Assembly (NCBI GenBank): GCA_051294375.1 | Contig: CM119263.1 | Coordinates: forward strand, 5,998,495 to 6,046,450 | Direction: 5' to 3' | Origin: Paraspadella gotoi | Taxonomy: Eukaryota; Animalia; Chaetognatha | DNA: 47,956 bases | Shown here: one piece after another, positions 1,531-47,956 of the stretch | Position numbering within the stretch: the stretch's first letter is position 1 | How the letters are laid out: each line of letters opens with the position of its first letter | The notes under the pieces: generated by a model | What the model was told of the DNA's origin: nothing | Database searches by the model: none | What the model saw: the letters and a program-made list of their open reading frames with translations, nothing else | Translations under genes and position numbers: made by a program

Positions 1531-1563
1531 TATCTGAATCGCCCTGTCGAAACAAATCTAAAA

Positions 1564-2557
1564 ATGATAAAATCTGTGGTTCTGTTTTTTTACGTTTCTT
1601 TTTTAATCTCATGTTGTTCGTCGTCGTCATCGTCGTCGTCCTTTGTCACGGCCGTGACTGTCTCGGGCGTCCCGTGTCGGAAGGGGCGAAACGTGTCAGG
1701 CACAAGGCTACGATTATTTCTGGTGTTACGTAGACGAAAAGAGGTAAAGGGTCATTTGAAAAATGAAGAAAAAAATGATAAAAAATATGAATAAATTTTT
1801 AATCATCAGGTGGGAGAAATGCTGCAATCCTGCTGGCAGGCTGCATCTTTTACTCAGCAACGATGAGACTTGGTGCAACAGCGCAGTAACGCCGAAGTCC
1901 GAAGCCACCGTTCGATGTCGCCCAAACCTTTGGCCTTCACAGTAGCCGGTCGGGCTTGCGCCTGGGTGAATTTTGCGGCCTCTACGGTTATGACTATGAG
2001 TGGTGCTACACTTCGGAGGATCGGCGGCTCCTGGGATTATTGCTGCTTTGCCGGATCGAATTGCGAAACTTCGGCGAACTGGCACTCGCTTTGCCAACGC
2101 GTGCCGGTATTGCGTCTTACAGAAACGCGGCGAAGCGGAACTAAATGCGTCGAAAAATGGCGTCCGTGTGAAGCCACGCCCAAAAACACGGAGCGTCAAC
2201 AATACGACTGGCTTGAGCGAGTGTGGACAAGGAGGGTAAAAGCAAATCGCGTCCATGGGGAACAAGAAACTCATACGGTTGGTGTTAGGTCACGAAGACG
2301 CATTGGGATTTCTGTTGTGCAATTGGAGAAAAGTGTGGCGGCGTGGTGCGTCTGCTTTGTTGCCATCAATGAAGCCTGGCCAATGAAATGCATCACTACA
2401 CTCGTCCGGTGTCTCTTCCGGGCGAATTATCCGGTCACCGTCGGACTCCCTTCGATTTAATTACCGGAGAAATCATCGCGATTGTAATTGGGAGTTGATG
2501 GGCCTTTGCTCTCATTGGTTATTATGGTGGCCAGATAATGCGAGGGCGGTCTGACTG
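1564..2557 (+). pseudogene. Frameshifted inverted copy of the Cys-rich membrane protein gene (likely artefactual)
   Basis: Same peptide segments as 428-1416, spread over several frames in the ORF track. Confidence 0.7.
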
Positions 2558-2604
2558 AAGGCTGAAGTCAGTTTTTTCCTCTCTCTCTCTCTCTTCTCTC
2601 TCTC

Positions 2605-2653
<49 letters not shown>

Positions 2654-2986
2654 TTGAAATTTAAATAATTTAATTCCAACAAAAAATTTGAGAAATAAAA
2701 TTTCAAACTTTAAATCTAGACGGTTTGCAGTTTTGTTATTGATATTTTTTCTCAATAATAACTATAAATCCTTGTTAAATATAAAATTTAACTCATGTTA
2801 GAACATGGCGACAAAAACCAAAAATTTATTCAATTTTCACGTTATATGTTTTGAATTTGTTTCGTAGAATTTCCATATTACATTTATTTTGCCATAAAAA
2901 AAATAAACGGATTCTTACAAGTTTGTTGTGTCAGTTCGGTCTATCGGTCGGCCATTTTTGTCGGCCGGTCGGTCTTAAACTCTCAC

Positions 2987-3653
2987 CAATAGAAGGGTCA
3001 TTGCCATTGCTCCATCTTCGTTCAACTGATCACCGACGCGACATTGTGATCCAAATCAGACACCAAAAGTCTTCGATTGTGTTGGGAAGAGGCATCTGGG
3101 TTACTATGTAGGCATCCTGGGAGGAGAGCGAGCGAGTGTTTGAGAGAGAGGGAGAGGAGGGGGAAAAGAGAGAATATCGGGATGAGAGAGAGCGAGTCTG
3201 TGAGAGAGAGGGAGAGGAGAGGGATAAAGGAAGAATATCGGAGGAGAAAGAGTGAGTGGGAGAGGGAGAGGGAGAAGAAGGGGAGAAAAACATCAGTAAA
3301 CTTACTTTTTATGATAACCGTTGACAAAGACGCGTTGATGTAGTTTCCTTTCCCTTCCTCGACAGAAAGTGAGAAGGTAGGGTCTGAACGGTCAGAAGGC
3401 AAAATGCCCTCAAATCGGTCTTTCCTGTTGAAGGCGAAAGATGACATCAAAAAAGACAAAAGATAAACAACAACAACGACAACAACAACCTCTATTTGAT
3501 CGTCTCCGTTCCGTCGTGGAATTCAATATCACTGTGCACAGGTGAGACTTTGATTGAGAATCTCAAACCTCTCATCATCACTGTGGGGCGCCCGTTCCGT
3601 TCGTTCCTTTCTTTCACCCAACGGCTTCATGATGTTGAAGTGGGCCGGCGCCA
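2987..3653 (-). CDS. Upstream exons of the receptor PTP D2 domain (inverted relative to downstream exons, indel-rich)
   Basis: Minus-strand peptides FNRKDRFEGILPSDRS..GKGNYINAS (KNRY-like and YINAS motifs) and DAYIVTQMPLPNTIEDFWCLIW/DHNVASVIS (YIxTQxPL..T..DFW motif). Confidence 0.8.
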
Positions 3654-7481: not shown

Positions 7482-10400
7482 GCCCGGCCACAACAACAAC
7501 AACGAAAACAACAACTAATGGTGATTGCTGCTTGGCAATCAATTGTAGTCAAACCAATTGTAGTCAAACCTGAAAAAAAACATTTCAACGAAGGTACAAA
7601 AAAAAAACTCAAAAACTCAAAAATAAAACAGAAAAACCAAATTTCCTCTGTAACTCAGAAAATCTCAAATTTCTTTTTTCTGCCCCCTGTAATTTCATTG
7701 CTTGCCGATTTTTGTCACTACTTACAAGTAAAGATTTAGGTAGCAATTTTTGCTTGATGTACTTTGGTCACGTGTTAAGATTTAGGGAACAATTGATTCT
7801 TTCCTGCTCTTTATTTCATTTTTTCTCCAAACGGAAAACAGACTTTTTGTGATACAAAACGATTTTTTTTTCAAACTTAAATCATTCCTTTCACAAAAAG
7901 ATGATGATGATGATGATTATTATTCTTTCCAAAGGTCGCGGCTCTGGAAACTCTGTAAAGCAGAATAGATAATTTTTTTTAAATCTCTTTTTTTGAGATA
8001 CTATTTTTGTATGCATTTACATTGAAAAGCGAATTTTCATACGAACTTTTAATAGTTAACTGATTGATGTTGTTTTGTTTAATTTTTGATTCTTGGTCGA
8101 TTAATACAATAGAATTGTAACGATGTTAACTCTTGTTTTTATTTATTAAACAATGATATTTATAAAAAAAAACCGAACGTTATTAAATCTATGAGAATGG
8201 TTTTAAGTACATTCAGGTTTCCTTAAAACCTATTTAAAATAGTAAAATACAATTTTCCGATATAATGGACAGCGGCTGACTTCTAGACATACTCAACGAA
8301 AGTGTTGTCAAAAAATATATATATTAAAAATGTAGGTTTACCGTTACGCAGTCCTAATGAATAAAGATATATAAATAATGATATTGATAATGATATATAA
8401 TATAATATTATATAGGATAATGATATATGAATTATGATATAATAACGCAGTCCTAAATTGAATAATAATAGTTACGACAGCGACGTCAGTGTTTAAAACA
8501 AATATGTTGGTTGTACCAATTTCATAAAATTCAGCTCCTTGTATCTTGATGCTCTTACGGAGTACAATATAGTATTCCCCGATCTAATACATACAATTGA
8601 TTAATTGAAATAATATACCACTTCATTGAAGGGGAAGCCAGGTACTCTGGGAGTGAATAAACAAGACTGTGAGAGAGTTTTGATTGAAAGTTTGCAGGGA
8701 CCTGCCATGTCATTATCTTGTAAGAGTGATGGAGGCCTTAAACCACCAGAGCCTGTCCAAAGTCAGGGCAAGATAGCTTATTTATTAAAGAATGGATAAT
8801 TTTTAAATTGGTTGTACCAATTTCATGTAAAATAGAATTTAAAAATTGAAAAACCAAATATCAAAAGACAGTTTAACTGAAAAAAAAACATAAGCAGTTT
8901 TTGTTATTAATAAAAAAAAAATATTAATCAGTTAAGTTCTAATTAAAAAAAAATATTATTATCATCATTATTTTTTGTTTTAAACGATTTGTGCCCTTTG
9001 TTTAAATTAGTTGTCATGTTTCCGCCCGCCATCGACAGATGAACGATCAAAGGAACAACGACTTCGCGCCGGATCCATTCATCCAAATTATCCAGATGAT
9101 TTTTTTTCTGTCTCTCTCTATTTCCTTCCGTCACGATTTTGTTTTTAACAATAAAAATTGATTTGACTTCGATTGTTTACTCTATTTACGAAGATGGACC
9201 CCAAAATATTCGACTTAAAAAGTCCCAGCTTCTGTATTGGAACTTGTAAACTTGAGTCAAAGATCGAAATTCAAATTAAAACATTCGACAGAAAAACAAT
9301 TTGAAGTGACCGAGAAGACAGGGAGTCGCCATGCCTCTTTAAGTGTGTGCATTTTCCCACACTTAGTGTACCCAGTGGGTCTGGGAAATTATTATGTCAG
9401 TTGTCTTGATTCCATAACTTCTGATCCAGCGGTTGACTTAACCGGGTTAATTTACCGGCTATGGACTGGGTTAGAACGCGGAACATTGGGGTTGGTGCAT
9501 TAGCCCAGAGCACTGTGATGGAAGGAATAACCATATCCAACGGCAATGACGTTAACCATGAAACCATGAACCATGAAACCTTCGATGACTCAGACCGAGA
9601 TCCCGACGAAAACCCTTACCCAGACGCAGAGCTCTACTCAGACCTTAACCCTTAACCCTGATCTCTTCATTTATTTGTCGCTATAAGATTGCTTCTACTG
9701 CTAAAATATTTTTGGATCTCCAAACTTTGTATTCGATAATCTTAGTTAATTAATTTTAGTTGACATATTCTTTGTTTTAATTATGAAATTAATTATAAAA
9801 GATAATAAGATTAAAGATTTTTGTAAAGAAGTTTTGAGATGAAATCTTCCTTTTCTTTCTTTTCTTTTTGACTAAAAAAGAAAATAAAAAAAGAGGCTTA
9901 ATTCCGCCAAGAATAAAAAAGAAATTTCTGGAATAAAGTTTGAGTTGATTTCGGTTGCACGAAAAACTCTCATTGAATTAGAACAAAAGTTTTCCCGCTT
10001 TTGTCCTCTAACTCTTGAGTTTTGAGACGTAATAATCTGAAATTTATTACTTCCAACTTTGAAAGTCAGCTTTTCGAATAAATAAAAATAAAACATTTAA
10101 AGAACCAATTATTTTAGCTTTTCTTTGAATTTATTATTTTCAAGTTAAATATAACAATGAATAATGAAAACTAATGGTTTAATTATTTAAATCATTATTT
10201 AAACAAACGTACGTAGTTTTTGAAGAATGTCCTGCAAGATAATGAGAGAAGTAGAAGAGAGAAATTTTTTTCTTTTCTATTCTCAGTGGATTTTATCGAT
10301 TTTTCGGCCACGAAGATTGTTAAACGTTTTCAAAGCCCTTATTAGCTCAATAGGAGTTTGTTCCCAAGGAAAAAATTATAATATTTTGTAAATATAACCA

Positions 10401-24500: not shown

Positions 24501-25077
24501 AAGGTGCCGATGGCACTGACGTCAATGGATGCTGTAGAAGTTCAGGAAAAAAACTGTTGGCCGGTGAGTGGCGTGGTTGATTGGTTCAGTAAGTGGCGGA
24601 GTAGGGGCGGGAAATAAATGAAAATACTGTTACAACCGTGATTAAAATTGGTTAATCTAAAATAAAGACGTATGGTGGACTAAAACCCACCAACCGTTCA
24701 TCAGCGGCCATTGGTGCCGGAGGCAAGTCATTCGCCTCCCAACCCAAAGGTCCGGGGTTCTAGCCCGGTGGTCGTCTGGCAGTTTAGAGGGACGGGGCGC
24801 TTAACCCGCCTGTAACATGGTGTTACAGCCTGATCCGAAGCTCAGGGACTGCTTATATTGAACGGTTCTATCACTAACTCATAACAATAATTACTGTCTC
24901 TTCAGACGTTAGGAGTAGTTCAAATTAAAACTCAGTTTAATTTTATTTCAGCGGGTGACGATTTTGGCAAAGTTTCTCTCTTCTCTTTTCCCTGCAACCG
25001 ACTTCGATCTGAGTCTAGATTATACGGAGGTCATAGTTCTCATGTCACAAACCTGCGCTTCCTCTTTGATGATTCGC

Positions 25078-25218: not shown

Positions 25219-26163
25219 GTCCCTACAGTGTCGGCTACACTGTCTGCTTCGATCTTCCCATTAGTATCCAGGGCGTCTTCACTACTCGCGGTGCTGATGT
25301 CGGCAAATGTAGATTGGCCATGTCGGCAAAAGTCAAATGATCATTTCTCCAGCTTTTTGTAGTCGTTACTGTTTTTCGTAGTGAATCTGATCTTCGTAGT
25401 TGTCGTTTTCGTAGTGATAACTGTTCTTGCTCACCAGTTTTTATTCACTTCTGTCACGAGCGACTTCGCCAGTTGGTATCACTTCTATCCTTAGTACACA
25501 TTTTACGTAAACGTCAAACGTAGTTAATATATTTGTTATATTTCAAAAACGCTATGATTTTTGAGATCTCTGTGATAATGTAACATTATCCATAGTATTT
25601 TTATCAAAACAAAATGGTATGCTGGGTTTTCGAAGCGACGAAATGCCATAACTTAGATAGATATAAATTTTTGTTTCCATGACTTGGAATTTTTGTCACG
25701 TGCATCGATCATTTTACACTCACATTTTATTAATTAATTAATAAATCCTTTTTTTCGTTTTGCCTCCTCGAGTATTAAAACGAAAGCATCATTACCTTTT
25801 CTCTTGCTCCTCCGTGCTTTTTTTTTCTGATGGAAATAGAAACACTTATTTCTTTTCATTTTTAGCTTTTTAAATAAGTATTTCGATACGAATCTTGACA
25901 ATAGCTAATTTCATTAGTCACTTTAAATTTGTCTAGTCAGCCCTGGGGAGCTCTTGTCCCGTTGGTCAAGCTAGGTTTTGAAAATTATATCTATGTTTAG
26001 GGTAATTGTGAAGATCTTTCTTTGATAGCGGAGGATCTTTTTACGGTTTTTACGGTTCTAGATTGATTAAAGATTTTACAAATCAGAAATTCTTTACGGT
26101 TTAAACTCGAAATAGTATGAAATTAGTTGTACCAATTTCATAAAATAAATTTTAAGAGGACAT

Positions 26164-26404
26164 TGTGATGGACTAAAATCCACCAACCGTTCATCAGCGG
26201 CCATTGGTGCCGGAGGCAAGTCATTCGCCTCCCAACCCAAAGGTCCGATGTTCTAGCCCGGTGGTCGCCTAGCAGTTAAGAGGAACGGTGCGCTTAACTC
26301 GCCACACTCGTAACACACGGTGTTACAACCTGATCCGAAACTAATAGACTGTTTATATTGAACGGTTCTGTCACTAACACAACAATAATTATACTGTCTC
26401 TTCA
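26164..26404 (+). mobile_element. Solo LTR (copy 2)
   Basis: TGTGATGG...TCTCTTCA (canonical TG..CA), TSD ACAT (26160-26163, 26405-26408). The twister part is more degenerate. Confidence 0.88.
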
Positions 26405-28285: not shown

Positions 28286-32842
<4,557 letters not shown>

Positions 32843-33549: not shown

Positions 33550-33823
33550 TGAAGAGACAGTAATTATTGATTTTATTATAAATATTATTATTAATTATTA
33601 TTGATTATATATATTATATAGACAGTAATTATTGATTTTGATTATTGATTATGATATTGATCAGGCTGTAACACCGTGTTACAGGCGGGTTAAGCGCCCC
33701 GTCCCTCTTAACTGCCAGACGACCACCGGCTAGAACCCGCGGACCTTTGGGTGGGGAGGCGAATGACTTGCCTCCGGCACCAGTGGTCGCTGATGAACGG
33801 TTGGTGGATTTTAGTCCACCATA
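33550..33823 (-). mobile_element. Solo LTR (copy 3) with AT-rich expansion in its 3' part
   Basis: Reverse complement of the consensus. TSD AGAC (33546-33549, 33824-33827). The twister is intact only up to the P4 5' strand. Confidence 0.88.
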
Positions 33824-39720: not shown

Positions 39721-41742
39721 TTATAATTATATATCAAAATTTCGGCACTTTTTTTCAAAGAAGCCCCCTTGCTGCGGCTCCTGAAGCAGCGGACTCAAAC
39801 ACCCGGCAAGGGGGCTTCGATGATTGAAAAGGCCCAAATTTCATATTGGGTTCCGCATACAATCCGTGTCTTTTAGACAACGAAATCTGAACTTCAATAA
39901 TTACCATCTTTCTTCATCTCATTGGTTAGAATGAAGCTTTCTTCATTTAAAAAAACGGTAGGCTATAGTTATCTTCTTATGACGTAGTACTTTCCAGGTA
40001 AATTTCTATGAGTTAAAACAAGGTATAAGACATGTTTTCTTCAATGATTGTCAATCAAATCTTAATTTTAGAAATAAGTATGATTGAATTTTTATGGTAA
40101 AGATAACTTTTAAAGATTGAATTCCTCATAAGAATCTTCACATCTTTTACTTACACAAAACTATTCATCAGGACGCCACATTATCTCATACAATGTTTTT
40201 CCCCTCATACCCTTTCCCTGATTCTTTTTCTTCATCTCTTTTCTACTCTTTATTTGTATTTTCTTTCCCTCTTTCCTCCCCTACTTCTCACACCGTCAAT
40301 TACATTTTTTGGCCCTACCTTTTTTGCCACTCTTCCACTTTCCTCACCTTTTTTCTCTTCTTCATTCTTTCCCTTTCTTTTCCCTCTTTTTCTGTCTATT
40401 TTCCTTCTTCCTACCTTTTATTTGTCTTCACTATTTTTTTCGCCATTTACCTTCTTTTTTGCCATTTGCCCCCTCTTTCATTCTCTCCGACCTCCTTTTC
40501 TTGTTCTCCCTTTCGTTTTCCTATCACTACATTTACATTGAGCAATAAAAAATCTTTCTTATGCGGTATAAAAAAAGAAATTAACGGTAATAGAGGATTT
40601 TATTTCAATTTTGGTTGGCCGAGCAGATTTAATAAATCGACAGATTTTGCGGAAAATTTTTTCCGCAAAATCTGTCGATTCTGAGAAAAAAACAAGTCCT
40701 GACGCTTTCCATTAGGGTTAAAAGGATGCCGGTTTTTTTTGTTTTATATAAGTCAGTATGTACCTCATCCTTAAAACTAATAAAATGAGTTAAAAAATAC
40801 TCTCTTTATCTAAAATAAATGCAAGTACACAAAAAGTCACAAAATTAAAAGTGTCTTTAAAAAAATTTGTGGCATAAACGAAAAAAGTTTTTTTTTGATA
40901 ATTTTGTAGGGTGTTAAAAGCTTATTTAATAGGCTATTTTTCTGTTAATTTCAACCAATTTTTTTTATTTTTTGTTTAAACAAAATTTATGATAAAGACT
41001 GAAAACTGCAACTTTTTGACTTATTACTTTAAAAAATAATTCATAGGCAAACTATAAATGATTTAAGCAAATTAAATTTACACAGGGGTAAAGAAGTAAG
41101 GAAGAACGGATTTCCAAAGTAAAAAATTTTTCTCAACTTTCCTTGGCATTCAAATCATAGATAAGTCGTAAGTAAAATGGACAAATGGACATAATTTTTT
41201 TTCCTAAAAGTTGCCAAAATGGTACTCTTTTATCATTAGAAACGGGTGGAGATGTTTTCTAACCAATCCTTCGTTCGGCCCAATTTGTGTTGTGGCACAA
41301 AGTTAAATCAACATTGTTAATAGTAACAAAAAAAAAAGAAAAACTGAACCAATAGGTGGAGAACGAGTCCGTATTTTTTTTTCCTAAAATGCAACGTTAG
41401 AATTTTGATATGCGAGAACCAATTGATTGATTATGATTTGACTTGGCAAATGAGCGGAAGAGAAGTTAGCCTTAAAAATCGTCTTTCATTTTAAAACTTT
41501 TAAAACTTTTTTTTCAATCTTTTTGTCTCACTTTTTAAATATTTTTTAAAGAACTTATAGATAAAAAAGTATCAATGTTAATATATTATGAAAGCTCTTG
41601 AAGATTTGAAGAGAATGATATATTTAAGAATATTGTAACATAAAAATAAGCCTAACCAGCTTTAATGTAATCAAGGTAATCAAAATTAAAATATTGAAAT
41701 CCTAAAATATATTTTTTTAAATAAATAACCTATTTAAGCTAT

Positions 41743-41976
41743 TATGGTGGACTAAAATCCACCAACCGTTCATCAGCGGCCATTGGTGCCGGAGGCAAGT
41801 CATTCGCCTCCCAACCCAAAGGTCCGGGGTTCTAGCCCGGTGGTCGCCTAGCAGTTTAGAGGGACGGGGCGCTTAACCCGCCTGTAACTCTGTGTTACAG
41901 CCTGATCCGAAGCTCAGGGACTGCTTATATTGAATGGTTCTGTCATTAACATATATCAATAATCATTGTCTCTTCA
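41743..41976 (+). mobile_element. Solo LTR (copy 4), best preserved: tRNA-like 41776-41847, twister 41850-41925
   Basis: TATGGTGG...TCTCTTCA with TSD CTAT (41739-41742, 41977-41980). Acceptor GCGGCCA/TGGTCGC; P5 AGCAGTT/GACTGCT. Confidence 0.9.
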
Positions 41977-42170
41977 CTATAATGATTGAACCAATTATTA
42001 TTTATATAAGTATCATAATAAATAATGAAAAAAACTAAATTAAAATAGCTAATAATAATTTAATAATTATTCCAAACATGCTTTTTTGCAATCTTTAATT
42101 TAATGGTTATCTTAATTTTGTTTACCTTTATTGATTTAAAGCTGGATTGACTAATTTTAATTTTAACATG

Positions 42171-42864
42171 GTAATTATCCTTTCTTTTTCGTTGTTTGAG
42201 GAGAGATTTACAAAGTTTGATTTTTATTTGCAACGAATTTTATTTTAAAAGAGCAGACATGTTTCGGCTCACAATACGAGCCTTCATCAGCGCATATGAG
42301 TTATGAACTTGATACAAGTTTTTAGTTAAAGTAAAAGAGAGAGAGAGAGAGAGAGAGGGTTAAAGGTTTCCAACAAAGAATTGAGTAAGGACAGTGATCA
42401 GTGGTGAGGACAGATTTTTGGAAGTGGCTAGTTTTGATAAGTTTTTGAAAAGAAGTGAAAATTGGTGAGAGAGACAGAGAGAGAGAGAGAGAGACAAAAT
42501 AAATAAATAATTACATTTGAGCAATGTACAACATAGATAAAGATAATGGAAACTGTTTAATAACAAATTGAATAAATTAATTTTTGAAATTGAAATTGAA
42601 AGTTGAAAATTGAAATTGAGAAGTTGAAAATTAGAGAGATAGATAAGTAAAGATTGTAGTGAAATATAAGAATTAAGAAAGAGCTCAAAATGAGCTGGGC
42701 CCCCCCCCGGTCTCTCTCTCTCTCTCTCTCTTTTACTTTAACTAAAAACTTGTATCAAGTTCATAACTCATATGCGCTGATGAAGGCTCGTATTGTGACC
42801 GAAACATACATTGTCTGCTTCTTTTAATAATGAAAATGGCGTTGCAAAATAAAATCAAACTTTG
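42171..42864 (-). mobile_element. Penelope-like retroelement remnant with inverted pseudo-LTRs
   Basis: ~150-bp inverted arms (42211-42358 and 42711-42864), each with a hammerhead core. Flanking 14-bp direct repeat TTAATTTTAACATG (42157-42170, 42865-42878). Confidence 0.65.
42253..42293 (-). ncRNA. Minimal type I hammerhead ribozyme motif
   Basis: Minus strand GCG-CTGATGA-A-GGCTC gtattgt GAGCC-GAAA-CATG-TC^TGC, with palindromic ACATGT at stem III. A degenerate copy lies on + at 42774-42818. Confidence 0.7.
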
Positions 42865-44417
42865 TTAATTTTAACATGATATTTTAATATTTAGATCGCA
42901 AAATATGACAAACGTTTTAAAAAAGTCATAAATTTTTTGTAACCAACTCGTTAGGTTTCAGTATGTAAAAGTAAAATAAGAGTTATTATTTCAATAATAT
43001 ACAAATATAGTTGTTTTTTCTAGTTTTTACACTGATACTGTTTTTGATTTTGTCCATACTGTTTTTGGTATTAATAAATTAAATAAAATAAAAAAATATA
43101 TATATATATATAAATATACAATATACAAAGCTGAATGTTATGAAATGGGTAGGATCAATTAGCCATTGAAGATGATAATATCGTGGGCAGATCCGACATT
43201 GTTTGCTCAAACTTGTTATTTTTGTATCTAACTAATCTGCTTCATGTATCCCTGCCTAACGCCTATACTATATGTAATTATATATTCTATGCATTTCAAT
43301 CTTTACTATCATTCCTGAGTTTTCAATAACTTTTACCTTATCTATTTTCATTTATTCAGTTTTAAATCTTATCTTAAATCTTGTCTGGAAGCTCATCCCA
43401 TGTTAAATCTTAAATATTATCTCATCCTTTAAATCTTACCGGACCCAGAGTATCCCGCTTCAGTTCTTCAAGGTGAAGGTCAAAAGCGAAGGGAGCGGAG
43501 CCCAGACCAACGAGGAAGAAAAACGCAACAATCGCACGACGTCGACGATCAGAGAAGAGCAGTTGAAAATCAGCCTGTCGGCGAATATAATATAAAGTAT
43601 AAAAAAATTCAAAGTATAATAATTTCCCCAGTAAAAGTATTATTATATGAAATTGGTACAACCAATATAAAAATATATATATATTTATATATGATAATAA
43701 TCATTTACCAACAAGATTTTGGGGTGGGACCGACGAACCGACAAAGTGAATTATAAAGTTGGAATCTGCTGATAAGCAGATCCATTTACAAAGTTTATAA
43801 TCGTTTGATTTCAAAAATGCACACATCATATAAAACTAAGGAGTTCTGGATCCAACTTTTATAGTAAATGCAGTTTTTATAACTGTAAGAATTTATTGTA
43901 TTCATTTGTAAAGTGACAGTACGTTTGAGACACGTTTTTGCCTAGATTGTATCGTTCAGATTTGGGCGGTTAAATATTTATCACAACAGCACAACGCCTT
44001 GAACTTGCCTTGAATTTTTTAGTTTAATCTCACCCGTTGAGAGTGTAGAAAGGCGAAGCCGTGAAGGGAGGAGACCAAAGAGTGAAAGATAATTACAAAT
44101 AAGAGACTCCAACCAACAAGGCGAAAGTAGAAAGCCTCTGACAATAGGTGCGTCACGGTTATCTGTCAAGAGATGATAAGCAGGCTTGGGTCCTTTGCTT
44201 CGAAAGGTTTTTCATGCTTGTGAATTAATCATACGTAGAGCGAGGATTACCGACAGGGAAAAATAGACTAGAATATAGAGAAATTAAGAAAAAAGAATTT
44301 TTTTTAGCTCTCTAACAACACTAATAATACTAATTACATTTTTACCTTTTACAATTCAATAAATATTACATTACGTATACTACACGTATACTATGTATAA
44401 TACGCAGTACAATATGT

Positions 44418-44542
44418 CATTATGGACTAAAATCAACCGACTGTTCATTCGCGGCCAGTCAAGAGGGAGGGGGCGCTTAATCTGCCTGTAATATGGTGTT
44501 ACGGCCTGATCCGAAGTTCAGGGACTGCTTATATTAAACGGT
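44418..44542 (+). mobile_element. Degenerate LTR copy 5 (tRNA-like domain deleted, twister region retained)
   Basis: ATGGACTAAAATC..GCGGCCA jumps to GTCAAGAGGGAGGGGGCGCTTAATCTGCCTGTAA..GTTACGGCCTGATCCGAAGTTCAGGGACTGCT. Confidence 0.75.
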
Positions 44543-46996
44543 GAGGAACAACAACAACAACACACAACCTCAGTTAAAAGTGACTTTACTAACCTTACCC
44601 TCGATCGCTTGCCCTCTCTCTCTTTATGGTCAACTTTGACCTTGTAAATACTCATTTGTTAGCCTTTTAAACTTTTTGACTGTTATTGTTATTAACCTGT
44701 TAACCTTAATCTGAAAATTGTTGCATCCACAACGGTATTATTATTTACTCCTAACAATTAATCTCTCTTCAATATATTAAATAGTATGATTGATTAAAGA
44801 AGAAAGGTTTAAAAATATATCTAGTAGTAGTGCCTGAATCTAGATTCAGATTTTCAAAAAACTTTCTAAATATGATCAGAACCATATTTAATAGAAATTA
44901 GTTACACAGCAGGTGGATTAAATATGCTCAAAAGGTTAGTAATAAAAATCGAGTGACTCGAATATGCAAATGAGATTAATGCGTCATCGTAAGATTAAAT
45001 ATAAGGCAAAAGAGAGCATAAACAATTTATTAATAATTATTTTTTAAAAAACAATTAATAAATATGTTTTAATTTGTTTTGATAATTTTTTATGAGAATT
45101 CTGTATAATAAAAAATATTTTAAAAAGCTAATTTATCTAACAATATTAACATAATTATTGGCTATAAATATATTTGTATTACTTCTTTTTTTATTCTTTT
45201 TTAATTTTGAAAAAATATTTAGTAAAAATATAGCTTTTTTAATTGGTTCAGGCACTAGAATACAACAATACTTCTGATTCTGAAAATGAATTGGGAAAAA
45301 ATGATTTTTGATACTTCTTTTACTTACTTATTTTAATTAGTTTAGGTTAAAAATGGTTGACACCTATCCTTACAGATATTCTATGCTGACTTTATTCAGC
45401 CAATTTAATATTATAAACATTTTTAATATGGAAAAAGTCATTGACTCTTTTTGACGAAACCTAATTCCTTCTTTTTCTATTTTTGTACCAATCGACTTTG
45501 GCGTCCCATAACTTTCGAACGCTATGTTCGATTTTATCGGGACTTGGACCAATCGATTCATCCTTCAATAAGCTTTATTTTATATCTCTAAGTCTTTGTA
45601 AAATTCATCCATCCAATACGTTTTTTTTTATGTGAAAATGTGGCTACTTTTTTTTGCGCCTTAGTGTACAAAATAATAACAGAGTAGTTCCTTGCAAGCT
45701 TTCAATCAAGACTCATTCACAGTCTCGTTTATTCATTCCTAGAGTATAATTTTGACATAATTATATTTGAAAGTACAAAAAAAATATTTTTTGCCAAATA
45801 TTTTTACTTTTTTTTAAACAGATTTAACAGGAATATGAAATTTTTTTGTAAGCAAATAAGAAGTATAGAGAGAGATTAAGAGAGAGAGAGAGAAACAGAT
45901 TGAGCCAAAATTATAATTTCTGGATATAGGCTTTATAATAGTATAAAAAATAAAAGTTTTAATTTTATAAAACTGACCCTCACCTATAACAAATGAAAGA
46001 TTTACCCTCACTTTTTTATTAACCTCTAAGTGGATCTAAAATTAAAATTTTTAAATAATACTAATTTTTTACTTTCATATCTTATTAGCTCAAATAAAAT
46101 GATAATGCTAACTCTTTTCCTAATGATATAAAAAAACAGCACCAATAAGAAGAAAAAGTTTTTTCACCTTCTTGTTTGCTGACACGCTATATAAAAGTAT
46201 ATTTTTATCCCAGAAGGTATCAACATTTTTATTTTTTTTGCGGGTAAGACAAAGGCCACAGGTTTTTTTTTCCTTTTTTCAACCTTGTTATCTTAATTAA
46301 AGCTAACAGACAAAGATAATTACTACAAAGACGGAGAGAATGATAAAACAACCATAAATTATTCTTACTCTTTAAAATCATTACTTAAGAGTTAATTGAA
46401 GAGAGCGCTGGAAAAGAAAGCATATGAAGAATACTTGCTATTAAAGTATTTTGATATGATTCAAGTAAACAGTACCAAAATGGTTGTGAGCAAAACAAAA
46501 AACTGATTGAACTGGATCTCTCTCTGCCTCAATGGCTTTTTGTCATTGGTTTACTGTCTCACTATTTTTCAAGATTGAGTTACAAGAAACCTTTATTACA
46601 ATAGTATTTTCATATGCTTTTTATTATTAAATATTGTTTTTTTTATCCTATATGCTGATAAAACTATACATACTAGCTTTTTAATTTGATTTTATTATAT
46701 TTATTTAAATTTTTATATAAGATTAATAAGTTTTTAATAAATTAAAGTATTACTGTGAGACGTTAATCTCATTTGCATATTAGAGTAACCCGATTTTTAT
46801 TACGAACCTTTTGGCCTTGTGGAAAAAAATCGTTCTATCTCATATCTCTTATTTTGGTACCAAGGTAATATTCCCAAGGTTTTGAAAAGATATTCCAACC
46901 CTTCCTATAGGAAGCTTGCCAGACTACTAGTAGCTAATCCCTAAACCTATCAGCGCATTTAATAAGTTTAATCTTTTTAATTTTTTTATGGTTATC

Positions 46997-47367
46997 AGTC
47001 TGTTGCGTCTCTTCAGTGAATTGTTGTTGTTGGTGGAAAGTGCGTCACCAAGTTGAGGCATGTCGCCTGATGTGTTTGATGGCGGAAAGTGCATCGCCAG
47101 GTTGAGGCATGTCGCCTGAAAGTGTTGTTGTCGCTGTTGTGTTTGGAAGTCGGGCTCACCAATGAAGAGACAGTGATTATTATTATGTGTTAGTGACAGA
47201 ATCGTTCAATATAAGCAGTTCCTGAGCTTCGATCAGCGCAATAAGCGCCCCGTTCCTCTTAACTGCCAGGCGACCACCGGGCTAGAACCTTTGGGTTGGG
47301 AGGCGAATTACTTGCCTCCGGCACCAACGGCCGCTGATGAATGGTTGGTGGATTTTAGTCCATCATA
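46997..47367 (-). mobile_element. LTR copy 6 (47367-47163) plus PBS (47161-47149) and ~150 bp internal region
   Basis: Reverse complement of 47555-47944, with internal deletions (twister P3 missing). Confidence 0.85.
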
Positions 47368-47554: not shown

Positions 47555-47956
47555 TATGGTGGACTAAAATCCACCAACCATTCATCAGCGGCTATTGGTG
47601 CCGGAGGCAAGTCATTCGCCTCCCAACCCAAAGGTCCGGGGTTTTAGCCTGGTGGCCGTCTAGAGGGACGGAGCGCTTAACCCGCCTGTAACATGGTGTT
47701 ACAGACTGATCCGAAGCTCAGGGACTGCTTATATTGAACGGTTCTGTCACTAACACATAATAATAATCACTGTCTCTTCATTGGTGAGCCCGACTTCCGA
47801 ACACAACAGCGACAACAACACTTTCAGGCGACATGCCTCAACCTGGTGATGCACTTTCCGCCAACAACACATCAGGCGACATGCCTCAACTTAGTGACGC
47901 ACTTTCCACCAACAACAAAATTCACTGAAGAGACGCAACAGACTTCTCCCTACGGG
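47555..47956 (+). mobile_element. LTR copy 7 (47555-47780) plus PBS and internal region running to about the window end
   Basis: LTR ends TCTCTTCA, then T-TGGTGAGCCCGAC. The internal region has two ~48-bp tandem repeats (TCAGGCGACATGCCTCAAC..GCACTTTCC). Confidence 0.85.
47782..47794 (+). promoter_or_regulatory. Primer-binding site, tRNA-Trp-like
   Basis: TGGTGAGCCCGAC lies one base after the LTR CA end. It matches 12/13 of TGGTGACCCCGAC, the complement of the metazoan tRNA-Trp 3' end (recalled, not searched). Confidence 0.7.

Follow-up and report, generated by a model that had tools for sequence, protein, structure and literature searches.

The stretch of Paraspadella gotoi DNA analysed here (47,956 nucleotides; hereafter "the window") raises the question of what a motif resembling a self-cleaving twister ribozyme is doing in a short dispersed repeat, and how it might work there. 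A preliminary description had read the motif as a type-P5 permuted twister with both pseudoknots present, and all the segments that it named are indeed present within 41850-41925 of the + strand, the predicted cut falling at 41874/41875. The twister architecture is supported; what had been missed is the context, a tRNA-bearing, LTR-like repeat of high copy number, which suggests a likely job for the motif. On balance we favor, with roughly even confidence, a type-P5 twister with a palindromic P1, lying in an LTR of the Helenus type and cutting mainly when two LTRs pair, in the manner of a retrozyme.

The twister-like motif and its homologue

The motif consists of the following parts:

41850..41925, + strand: type-P5 twister-like ribozyme that has a P3 insert but lacks a P1 hairpin; cut predicted at 41874/41875
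41850-55/41920-25, +: arms of P5 (6-7 bp)
41856-59, +: 4-nt linker
41860-62, +: P2' strand
41863-64, +: G-A, the predicted general-base G and the conserved A, aligned to the Rfam Twister-P5 consensus via family 2
41865-67, +: T1' strand, aligned to the same consensus via family 2
41868-73, +: self-complementary hexamer replacing P1 (6-nt spacer), end pairs G.U
41874-76, +: U^AA, predicted cut site
41877-79, +: P2 strand
41880-81, +: T2 strand
41882-41900, +: P3 insert, 19 nt
41901-05/41914-18, +: P4 stem, 5 bp
41906-13, +: L4 loop, 8 nt, bearing the partners of T1 and T2

As judged from the sequence, the folding of 41850-41925 as a twister appears well supported and its twister ancestry very probable, and it is likely that some copies are catalytically active. 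T1 (3 bp) and T2 (2 bp) together have five pairs, all of them Watson-Crick both here and in a homologue carried by a second repeat (family 2; the 234-bp repeat around the present motif is family 1), and two of the five have changed on both sides. P2 is as weak as the preliminary description had judged, with two base pairs and a C.A mismatch where type P5 has 3-4 bp; the same C.A is kept in family 2, the first P2 pair covaries, and a shifted register competes. The three P3 loop variants listed earlier (ATGGT, TCTGT, ACGGT) do occur, in the copies at 24671, 41743 and 33823. A type-P1 reading that uses downstream sequence was tried and rejected: no P2' or G-A-T1' lies in register beyond P4'.

The simplest alternative is that a GC-rich repeat happens to contain the pattern by chance. 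The motif has no Rfam match, and its single-strand folding z is only -1.4, both of which would be expected of such an accident. A loose type-P5 descriptor, written after the motif had been seen, finds a match in 24 of 20,000 dinucleotide-shuffled versions of the 234-nt element, and this falls to 2 of 20,000 when a P5 of at least 5 bp is also demanded. In the real window the loose descriptor gives six matches (three copies of the 234-bp repeat, one in family 2 and two without other support), and in 40 shuffled whole windows a mean of 1.6 per window, none of them with T2 = GC. The low shuffle rate, together with a homologue that shows covariation and matches Rfam, largely refutes a chance origin, which we regard as extremely improbable.

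The homologue lies in a repeat that was found in these places:

8507-8825, +: family 2 repeat, resembling family 1 only over the ribozyme
8714..8775, +: homologous P1-less type-P5 twister, predicted cut 8739/8740
29427..29463, -: 5'-truncated family 2 copy holding the 3' part of the twister
29317-29465 (-) and 45667-45746 (-): partial copies of family 2
26123 (+) and 43665 (-): family 2 ends

Its layout is that of family 1 minus P3: the linker has 4 nt and the spacer 6, P2 has 2 bp and the C.A mismatch, a single G leads into P5, and P5 itself (7 bp) is of other sequence. Of the 43 core columns, 10 differ between the families, nine of them paired columns, and still all 14 core pairs are kept, with two-sided changes at four: the first P2 pair, the third T1 pair, the first T2 pair and the center of the spacer palindrome. 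A two-sided change is also reported for P5, where a different 7-bp sequence is still paired. Random placement of the differences reproduces this pattern of pair keeping in 8 of 1.5 million trials. The tenth core difference is private to the copy at 41743 (98% of the depth in sequencing run X1 has the family 2 letter at 41857), and several of the changes between the families are transitions (C>T or G>A), some at CpG. Pairing of T1, T2 and P2 was built into the descriptor by which family 2 was detected, so that P5, the linker and the palindrome form the independent part of this evidence.

Covariance models respond to the two families differently. At gathering score, Rfam gives no match at all in the whole window, neither twister nor tRNA, and around the family 1 motif there is no twister match even at E ≤ 10. 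The top match for family 2 is Twister-P5, at 25.6 bits (E 6.2e-4 in a 111-nt search), below the RF02684 gathering threshold of 37.6 bits; control phage type-P5 twisters score 44.5-54.7 bits (8 matches in 7 of 8 loci). With a model built from six phage twisters and family 2, leaving family 1 out, four family 1 copies rank third to sixth of seven, a weak result, the E values being only 0.85-3.9 and the register wrong.

Mutant data from the rice twister agree with the proposed pairs. The CCG/CGG form of T1 had been called a compensatory variant, and its equivalent, C27G/G47C, scores 0.86 in rice, against about 0.13 for C27G alone, while the equivalents of the family 2 pairs, C27A/G47U and G13A/C31U, score 0.83 and 0.89 (PMC5113685; columns counted by hand in the machine-read supplement table). 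Imperfections of P1 and P2 are also reported as tolerated in natural type-P1 twisters (PMC11662667). The assignment to the type-P5 architecture with both pseudoknots is supported by the 14 kept pairs and four two-sided changes, the Rfam match of family 2 and the double mutants.

Within that architecture the family 1 motif is a variant rather than a canonical member, because it has no P1 hairpin within one copy and P1 is unneeded for catalysis. It shares with the type-P5 twisters of RF02684 (clan CL00120), as these are described in PMC5408937, the order of segments, the U^AA site and the G-A before T1', and also the 8-nt L4 with T1 and T2, the P4, the terminal P5 and the optional place of P3. 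It differs in having a 6-nt palindrome for P1, a reversed third T1 pair, a P2 of 2 bp plus C.A, a 19-nt P3, no Rfam score and a eukaryotic LTR context. Rfam probably misses a class of twisters with no P1, a reversed T1 pair and a P3 insert, and because it does so, genome counts of twisters are probably low.

The ends of family 2 are direct repeats based on a palindromic 19-mer, some of its copies are truncated at the 5' end, and its neighbors are TA-rich. These traits fit Naiad Penelope-like elements, which are reported to favor (TA)n and to be without hammerheads (PMC8557442), and family 2 is possibly a Naiad/Penelope terminal repeat or a retrozyme. No coding part of family 2 was found in the window, and no reverse transcriptase or integrase among the 95 of 193 open frames (≥65 aa) that were scanned, for which reason both the identity of family 2 and the helper discussed below are inferred.

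The 234-bp repeat as a putative LTR

The unit that carries the motif, and its other copies in the window, are as follows:

41743..41976, +: 234-bp repeat unit (family 1), putative solo LTR (TRIM of Helenus type)
41739..41742: left 4-bp target-site duplication, exact match to 41977-41980
41977..41980: right 4-bp target-site duplication, partner of 41739..41742
41745..41764, +: 5'-terminal hairpin of the unit (7 bp), from folding
41764..41772, +: stem arm enclosing the tRNA-like part and the twister, partner 41931-41939
41776..41848, +: tRNA-Gly(CCC)-like segment, A box 41784-95, B box 41828-37, putative Pol III promoter
24671..24904, +: solo copy with the twister core intact, 94% identical to the copy at 41743, sense in an EML intron
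26164..26404, +: solo copy starting TG that has lost T2 and the catalytic G
33550..33823, -: solo copy with an AT-rich duplication in place of the twister's 3' half
44420..44542, +: older copy with an internal deletion (tRNA part gone, T1 broken)
47555..47780, +: copy followed by a primer site and internal region (putative 5' LTR)
47781..47794, +: tRNA-Trp-type primer-binding site directly after the terminal CA
47781..47956, +: non-coding interior containing a tandem duplication of 48 bp, running to the window end
46997..47367, -: second copy with a primer site (47149-47162) and truncated interior, twister partly deleted

Seven copies thus lie in the window, five of them 86-94% identical to the copy at 41743. 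The enclosing stem is perfect with the letter that most public contigs have at 41935, a C. Exact 4-bp duplications flank all four solo copies that have both ends (chance 0.0075 per copy), a count that covers these four and leaves aside the two copies with internal sequence and the deleted copy. A duplication of 5 or 6 bp was considered and ruled out, because every copy has the same first T and the loose contig ends peak at 41743. All complete copies end in CA, and the start is TG in one of seven and TA in six; TA..CA is a recognized rare LTR terminal motif.

Two copies (47555 and 46997-47367) continue into the same non-coding sequence, which opens with the 14-nt primer site, and in both this site is identical in 13 of 14 letters to the starts of Gypsy-32-I_NVi and Helenus-2_SyJa-I as given in the supplement of PMC10886601; the assignment is made against published tRNA-Trp sites rather than the host's own tRNA-Trp. 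The window holds no complete LTR-internal-LTR element and no purine tract, the interior behind 47555 reaching the window end, and the public contigs that cover the interior do not reveal the junction where it stops. A 9-nt stretch at 47926-47934 is the reverse complement of the LTR 3' end at 47772-47780, so that the interior can fold back onto the LTR end and primer site. At 26123-26164 one family 1 copy is inserted about 20 bases past a family 2 end.

Assembled contigs of public sequencing runs, whose depth measures neither copy number nor expression, give the same unit. Run X1 has 12,005 contig records on the 234-bp unit, unrelated flanks start at 41743 and 41976, and loose ends number 119 before 41743 and 49 behind 41976. 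The repeat is present in ten runs of four studies, one of which is possibly the source of the window itself, and the interior is covered by many contigs in all four runs searched for it, with a summed depth in X1 of a quarter to a third of that of the repeat. A diverged subfamily (45 of 233 letters different) occurs in three runs, in contigs over 41742-41974, and in run X10, from organism B, one 151-nt contig matches the last 61 bases (41916-41976) with 7 differences and the same boundary.

The tRNA-like segment is called by ARAGORN at threshold 80 in three copies and at 70 in a fourth, and no family 1 segment is called at 90 or at the default. Because threshold 80 gives 20 calls across the window, most of them probably noise, the tRNA claim is carried by the box motifs and the 7-bp acceptor stem; the fold z of the segment is -2.66. 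Runs of four T are absent in three of the four family 1 stretches checked and in 12% of random 234-nt windows. We infer that Pol III could transcribe the element from this segment, a step that is unproven for the published Helenus elements too (PMC10886601). On the minus strand, 41772-41778 reads as the first half-core of a hammerhead (CUGAUGA) beside the 5' hairpin, with no second half, and is probably chance or a relic.

Taken together, these features make it quite likely that the 234-bp repeat is an LTR, most likely that of a Helenus-type miniature retrotransposon, an assignment that is provisional. Alternatively, it could be a tRNA-derived SINE, or a non-LTR retrozyme mobilized by Penelope-like elements, with the "primer site" incidental. 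A tRNA joined to a ribozyme is the layout described for schistosome tRNA-plus-hammerhead elements (PMC6765202); moreover, the termini are TA..CA in most copies, and one X1 contig contains a head-to-tail joint. The repeat, however, has fixed 5' and 3' ends, constant 4-bp duplications and no A-rich tail, its tRNA part begins 33 nt inside the unit, where a tRNA-derived SINE would have it at the start, and a Gypsy-type primer site stands right after the terminal CA. We consider this alternative very unlikely.

The palindromic spacer and a predicted two-copy ribozyme

P1 had been described as vestigial. This is correct in that there is no P1 hairpin, but the spacer between T1' and the cut is a palindrome in both families, with a central CG/GC swap between them, which suggests that the active form contains two copies. 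The spacer pairs with itself perfectly in the copy at 47555 and in family 2, and with G.U in the copies at 41743 and 24671; of all hexamers, 5.3% would do so with G.U allowed and 1.6% without. In either family, then, two copies can supply the P1 helix by pairing their 6-nt palindromes. Among the matches listed, all six phage type-P5 twisters that were confirmed by Rfam and passed a pairing filter have a P1 hairpin of 5-8 bp. In dimeric Penelope hammerheads, a short palindrome likewise stands where the helix next to the cut would be and is described as their signature (PMC6765202), and the hammerheads of amphibian retrozymes are reported to cut much better as dimers (PMC7229834).

Folding predictions bear on this in several ways, all from models that leave pseudoknots out. 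With P3 and P4 fixed, the minimum-energy fold of two copies pairs all six palindrome bases between the copies in each of the three motifs tried, compared with 8 of 60 and 22 of 180 permuted spacers; a single copy folds so as to bury T1', P2 and T2. The energy gained by dimerization does not discriminate for family 1, because most permuted spacers do at least as well (47 of 60 in one comparison and 51 of 60 in another). When unconstrained, three of four family 1 pairs prefer to swap P3 strands, and in both families the two-copy folds shift the register of P2 and bury the catalytic G.

A single copy may nevertheless cut, because P1 is dispensable in other twisters: those without it are reported to cut at near wild-type rate (PMC5408937), and in about 1,950 natural type-P1 twisters P1 defects do not lower cleavage (PMC11662667). 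On such a reading each copy, with no P1 or one base pair closing a 4-nt loop, would be active alone and would set the ends of the RNA in place of a Pol III terminator; the nearest-neighbor models, furthermore, ignore the very pseudoknots that would stabilize the monomer. It would leave unexplained why the spacer is self-complementary in both families and has swapped on two sides, and if the first LTR were cut quickly, strand transfer would be deprived of its 5' repeat, unless circles formed anyway. The toleration of an intact solo copy, sense in an intron, is a further, weak point against it. We think a monomer of this kind unlikely.

If, as we favor, two copies are needed, the element may proceed as follows. 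Pol III transcription would begin at the tRNA-like segment in the 5' LTR and run on through the element, as the A and B boxes and the few T4 runs suggest. The two LTR copies in the transcript would swap strands, their palindromes forming one 6-bp P1 common to two active sites, each of which would join the 5' half of either copy to the 3' half of its partner, fully nested. Cutting of both U^A bonds would, by twister chemistry, release a unit-length RNA with a 5'-OH and a cyclic phosphate. By analogy with retrozymes, a host tRNA ligase might close it to a circle, and ligase closure has been demonstrated in vitro for animal retrozymes (PMC7229834). The circle would carry a single P1-less copy and resist recutting. 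A putative Gypsy-type helper would then prime at the tRNA-Trp site, copy round the circle so as to rebuild both LTRs, and integrate the product with a 4-bp duplication; a Gypsy helper for these last steps has been proposed for plant retrozymes (PMC4918200).

Under this two-copy reading a solo LTR would have next to no activity and could therefore sit in a host intron. The intact solo copy at 24671..24904, sense in the EML intron, fits, though cutting within an intron would be tolerable as well. Against any retrozyme-like reading, the ordinary TRIM cycle needs no ribozyme.

A bolder version can be put forward tentatively, as a possibility that we rate below even: the element would be an animal LTR retrozyme driven by Pol III, its twister an obligate two-copy ribozyme captured from a Penelope/Naiad-like repeat, with the circle as template and the two-copy rule as a safety switch. 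If this were true, one ribozyme module would have moved between two orders of retroelements, and the switch would leave thousands of solo LTRs harmless in host transcripts.

How well the motif has been kept bears directly on whether it is used. The whole core is intact in three of the seven window copies (24671, 41743 and 47555, the last with a weakened P5 and one P4 mismatch) and damaged in the other four. Over thousands of contigs the majority letters keep every catalytic and pseudoknot position, and the variants above 20%, among those listed, fall in the P3 loop, the linker or the end of P5, which are harmless places. A G41909A change that breaks T1 makes up 12% of the depth in run X1, 4% in X9 and 2% in X5. 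Because the minor variants in 41776-41925 are mostly C>T and G>A, many of them at CpG, the sequence also suggests that the host methylates the repeat.

The damaged copies and the T1-breaking variant would be expected if the twister were a passenger from a Penelope/Naiad-like repeat of the family 2 type, with no useful cutting, inside an ordinary Helenus TRIM that moves through linear RNA. Published families of Helenus get by with no ribozyme reported in them; in addition, folding predicts a misfolded monomer, P2 is able to slip, and the compensatory changes could be older than the capture. A mere passenger sits less well with contig majorities that preserve all catalytic and pseudoknot positions and confine the common variants to harmless places, or with a P3 insert that stands at the natural P3 position and resembles the P3 of Schistosoma twisters (PMC8501958, Table 1). 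This reading seems to us fairly improbable.

Relation to known elements and other features of the window

Each part of the proposed element has a precedent, in type-P5 twisters, Helenus, plant LTR retrozymes, dimeric hammerheads and RTE twisters, and the combination appears to be new. The Helenus TRIMs and TRIMp3 elements (Kojima 2024, PMC10886601) are described with the same tRNA-like A/B-box segment within a short LTR, 4-bp duplications, a tRNA-Trp primer site (Helenus-2_SyJa, Gypsy-32_NVi), many solo LTRs and a non-coding interior; the family 1 LTR differs in carrying a ribozyme and in starting with TA in six of seven copies rather than TG. A tRNA-Trp site with a 4-bp duplication is also given as typical of CsRn1 Gypsy elements (PMC3630058). 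In the text of the Helenus paper the word "twister" is absent and "ribozyme" appears once, in the title of a reference, and exact string searches of its consensus file gave no twister L4 with a P4 stem, line breaks in the file being able to hide matches. In the open-access literature, subscription papers and Repbase lying outside this scope, the combination of a twister with a Helenus-type LTR was not found.

Plant LTR retrozymes (Cervera et al., 2016, PMC4918200; PMC7761336) are alike, as described there, in being non-coding LTR elements whose two LTRs both contain a self-cleaving motif, and in having 4-bp duplications, a primer site, solo LTRs and a Gypsy-type helper (putative in our case). 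Differences are the animal host, a twister instead of a type-III hammerhead, a tRNA-Trp instead of a tRNA-Met primer, the internal tRNA-type promoter and the predicted dependence on two copies; the circles are, here, predicted only. Retrozymes with LTRs are described from plants, with hammerheads, and the animal kind as having neither LTRs nor primer sites (PMC7761336). The family 1 element is thus probably retrozyme-like in its working and not a member of the plant group.

With the dimeric minimal hammerheads of Penelope-like elements and amphibian retrozymes (PMC6765202, PMC7229834) it would share a cut-site helix reduced to a short palindrome, through which two copies complete each other, and differ in belonging to the twister class, whose reduced helix is known to be dispensable, and in its true LTR context. 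The twister T-variants of the Perere-3 RTE element of Schistosoma mansoni (Liu et al., 2021, PMC8501958) are likewise used by an animal retroelement and resemble family 1 in the sequence of the P3 stem and in tolerating a weak P1; they are reported to be of type P1, in a non-LTR element whose 5' end is set by the cut, whereas the family 1 motif is of type P5 and lies in mid-LTR.

Searches beyond the window returned little of the same kind. A metagenome scan for the motif gave a single locus, which lies in a bacterial pyrimidine gene and matches by chance, and the family-specific architecture had no matches in viral contigs or prokaryotic genomes. Looser twister patterns found at least 438 loci in viral and prokaryotic sequences, with no palindromic P1-less twister among the matches listed; ten of these passed the pairing filter, namely six canonical phage type-P5 twisters, three unconfirmed CCG/CGG candidates and one with a 6-nt non-palindromic spacer, and Rfam gave no score to the last four. 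Two related phage stretches (L013 101-140 and L019 101-140) fit type P5 with a reversed T1 pair like that of family 1, a 6-bp P4 and a 3-bp P2, and have no Rfam score.

Helenus has had no reported ribozyme and no known way to end a Pol III transcript. If the motif cuts, it would join the Helenus and retrozyme groups and give the twister a role in an LTR element; it would also be a natural twister that needs two copies, and possibly a tool that cuts only when repeated.

The remainder of the window holds intron-split genes for EML (echinoderm microtubule-associated protein-like), a kinase and a phosphatase, and the best named matches of the kinase are to crustaceans, at about 70%. At 42256-42290 on the minus strand there is a minimal Penelope-type hammerhead core, with a stem II of 5-6 bp and a palindromic 4-nt stem III, to which Rfam gives no score; it lies in an inverted pair of 150-bp repeats, with a degenerate inverted copy within 42711-42869 (+). 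Positions 1-1432 and 1547-3007 form a 1.4-kb inverted duplication, 91% identical, with a cysteine-rich reading frame that has no Pfam match. Two more small families of dispersed repeats are present, at 11938-12015/39614-39690 and at 44929-44992/46750-46813.
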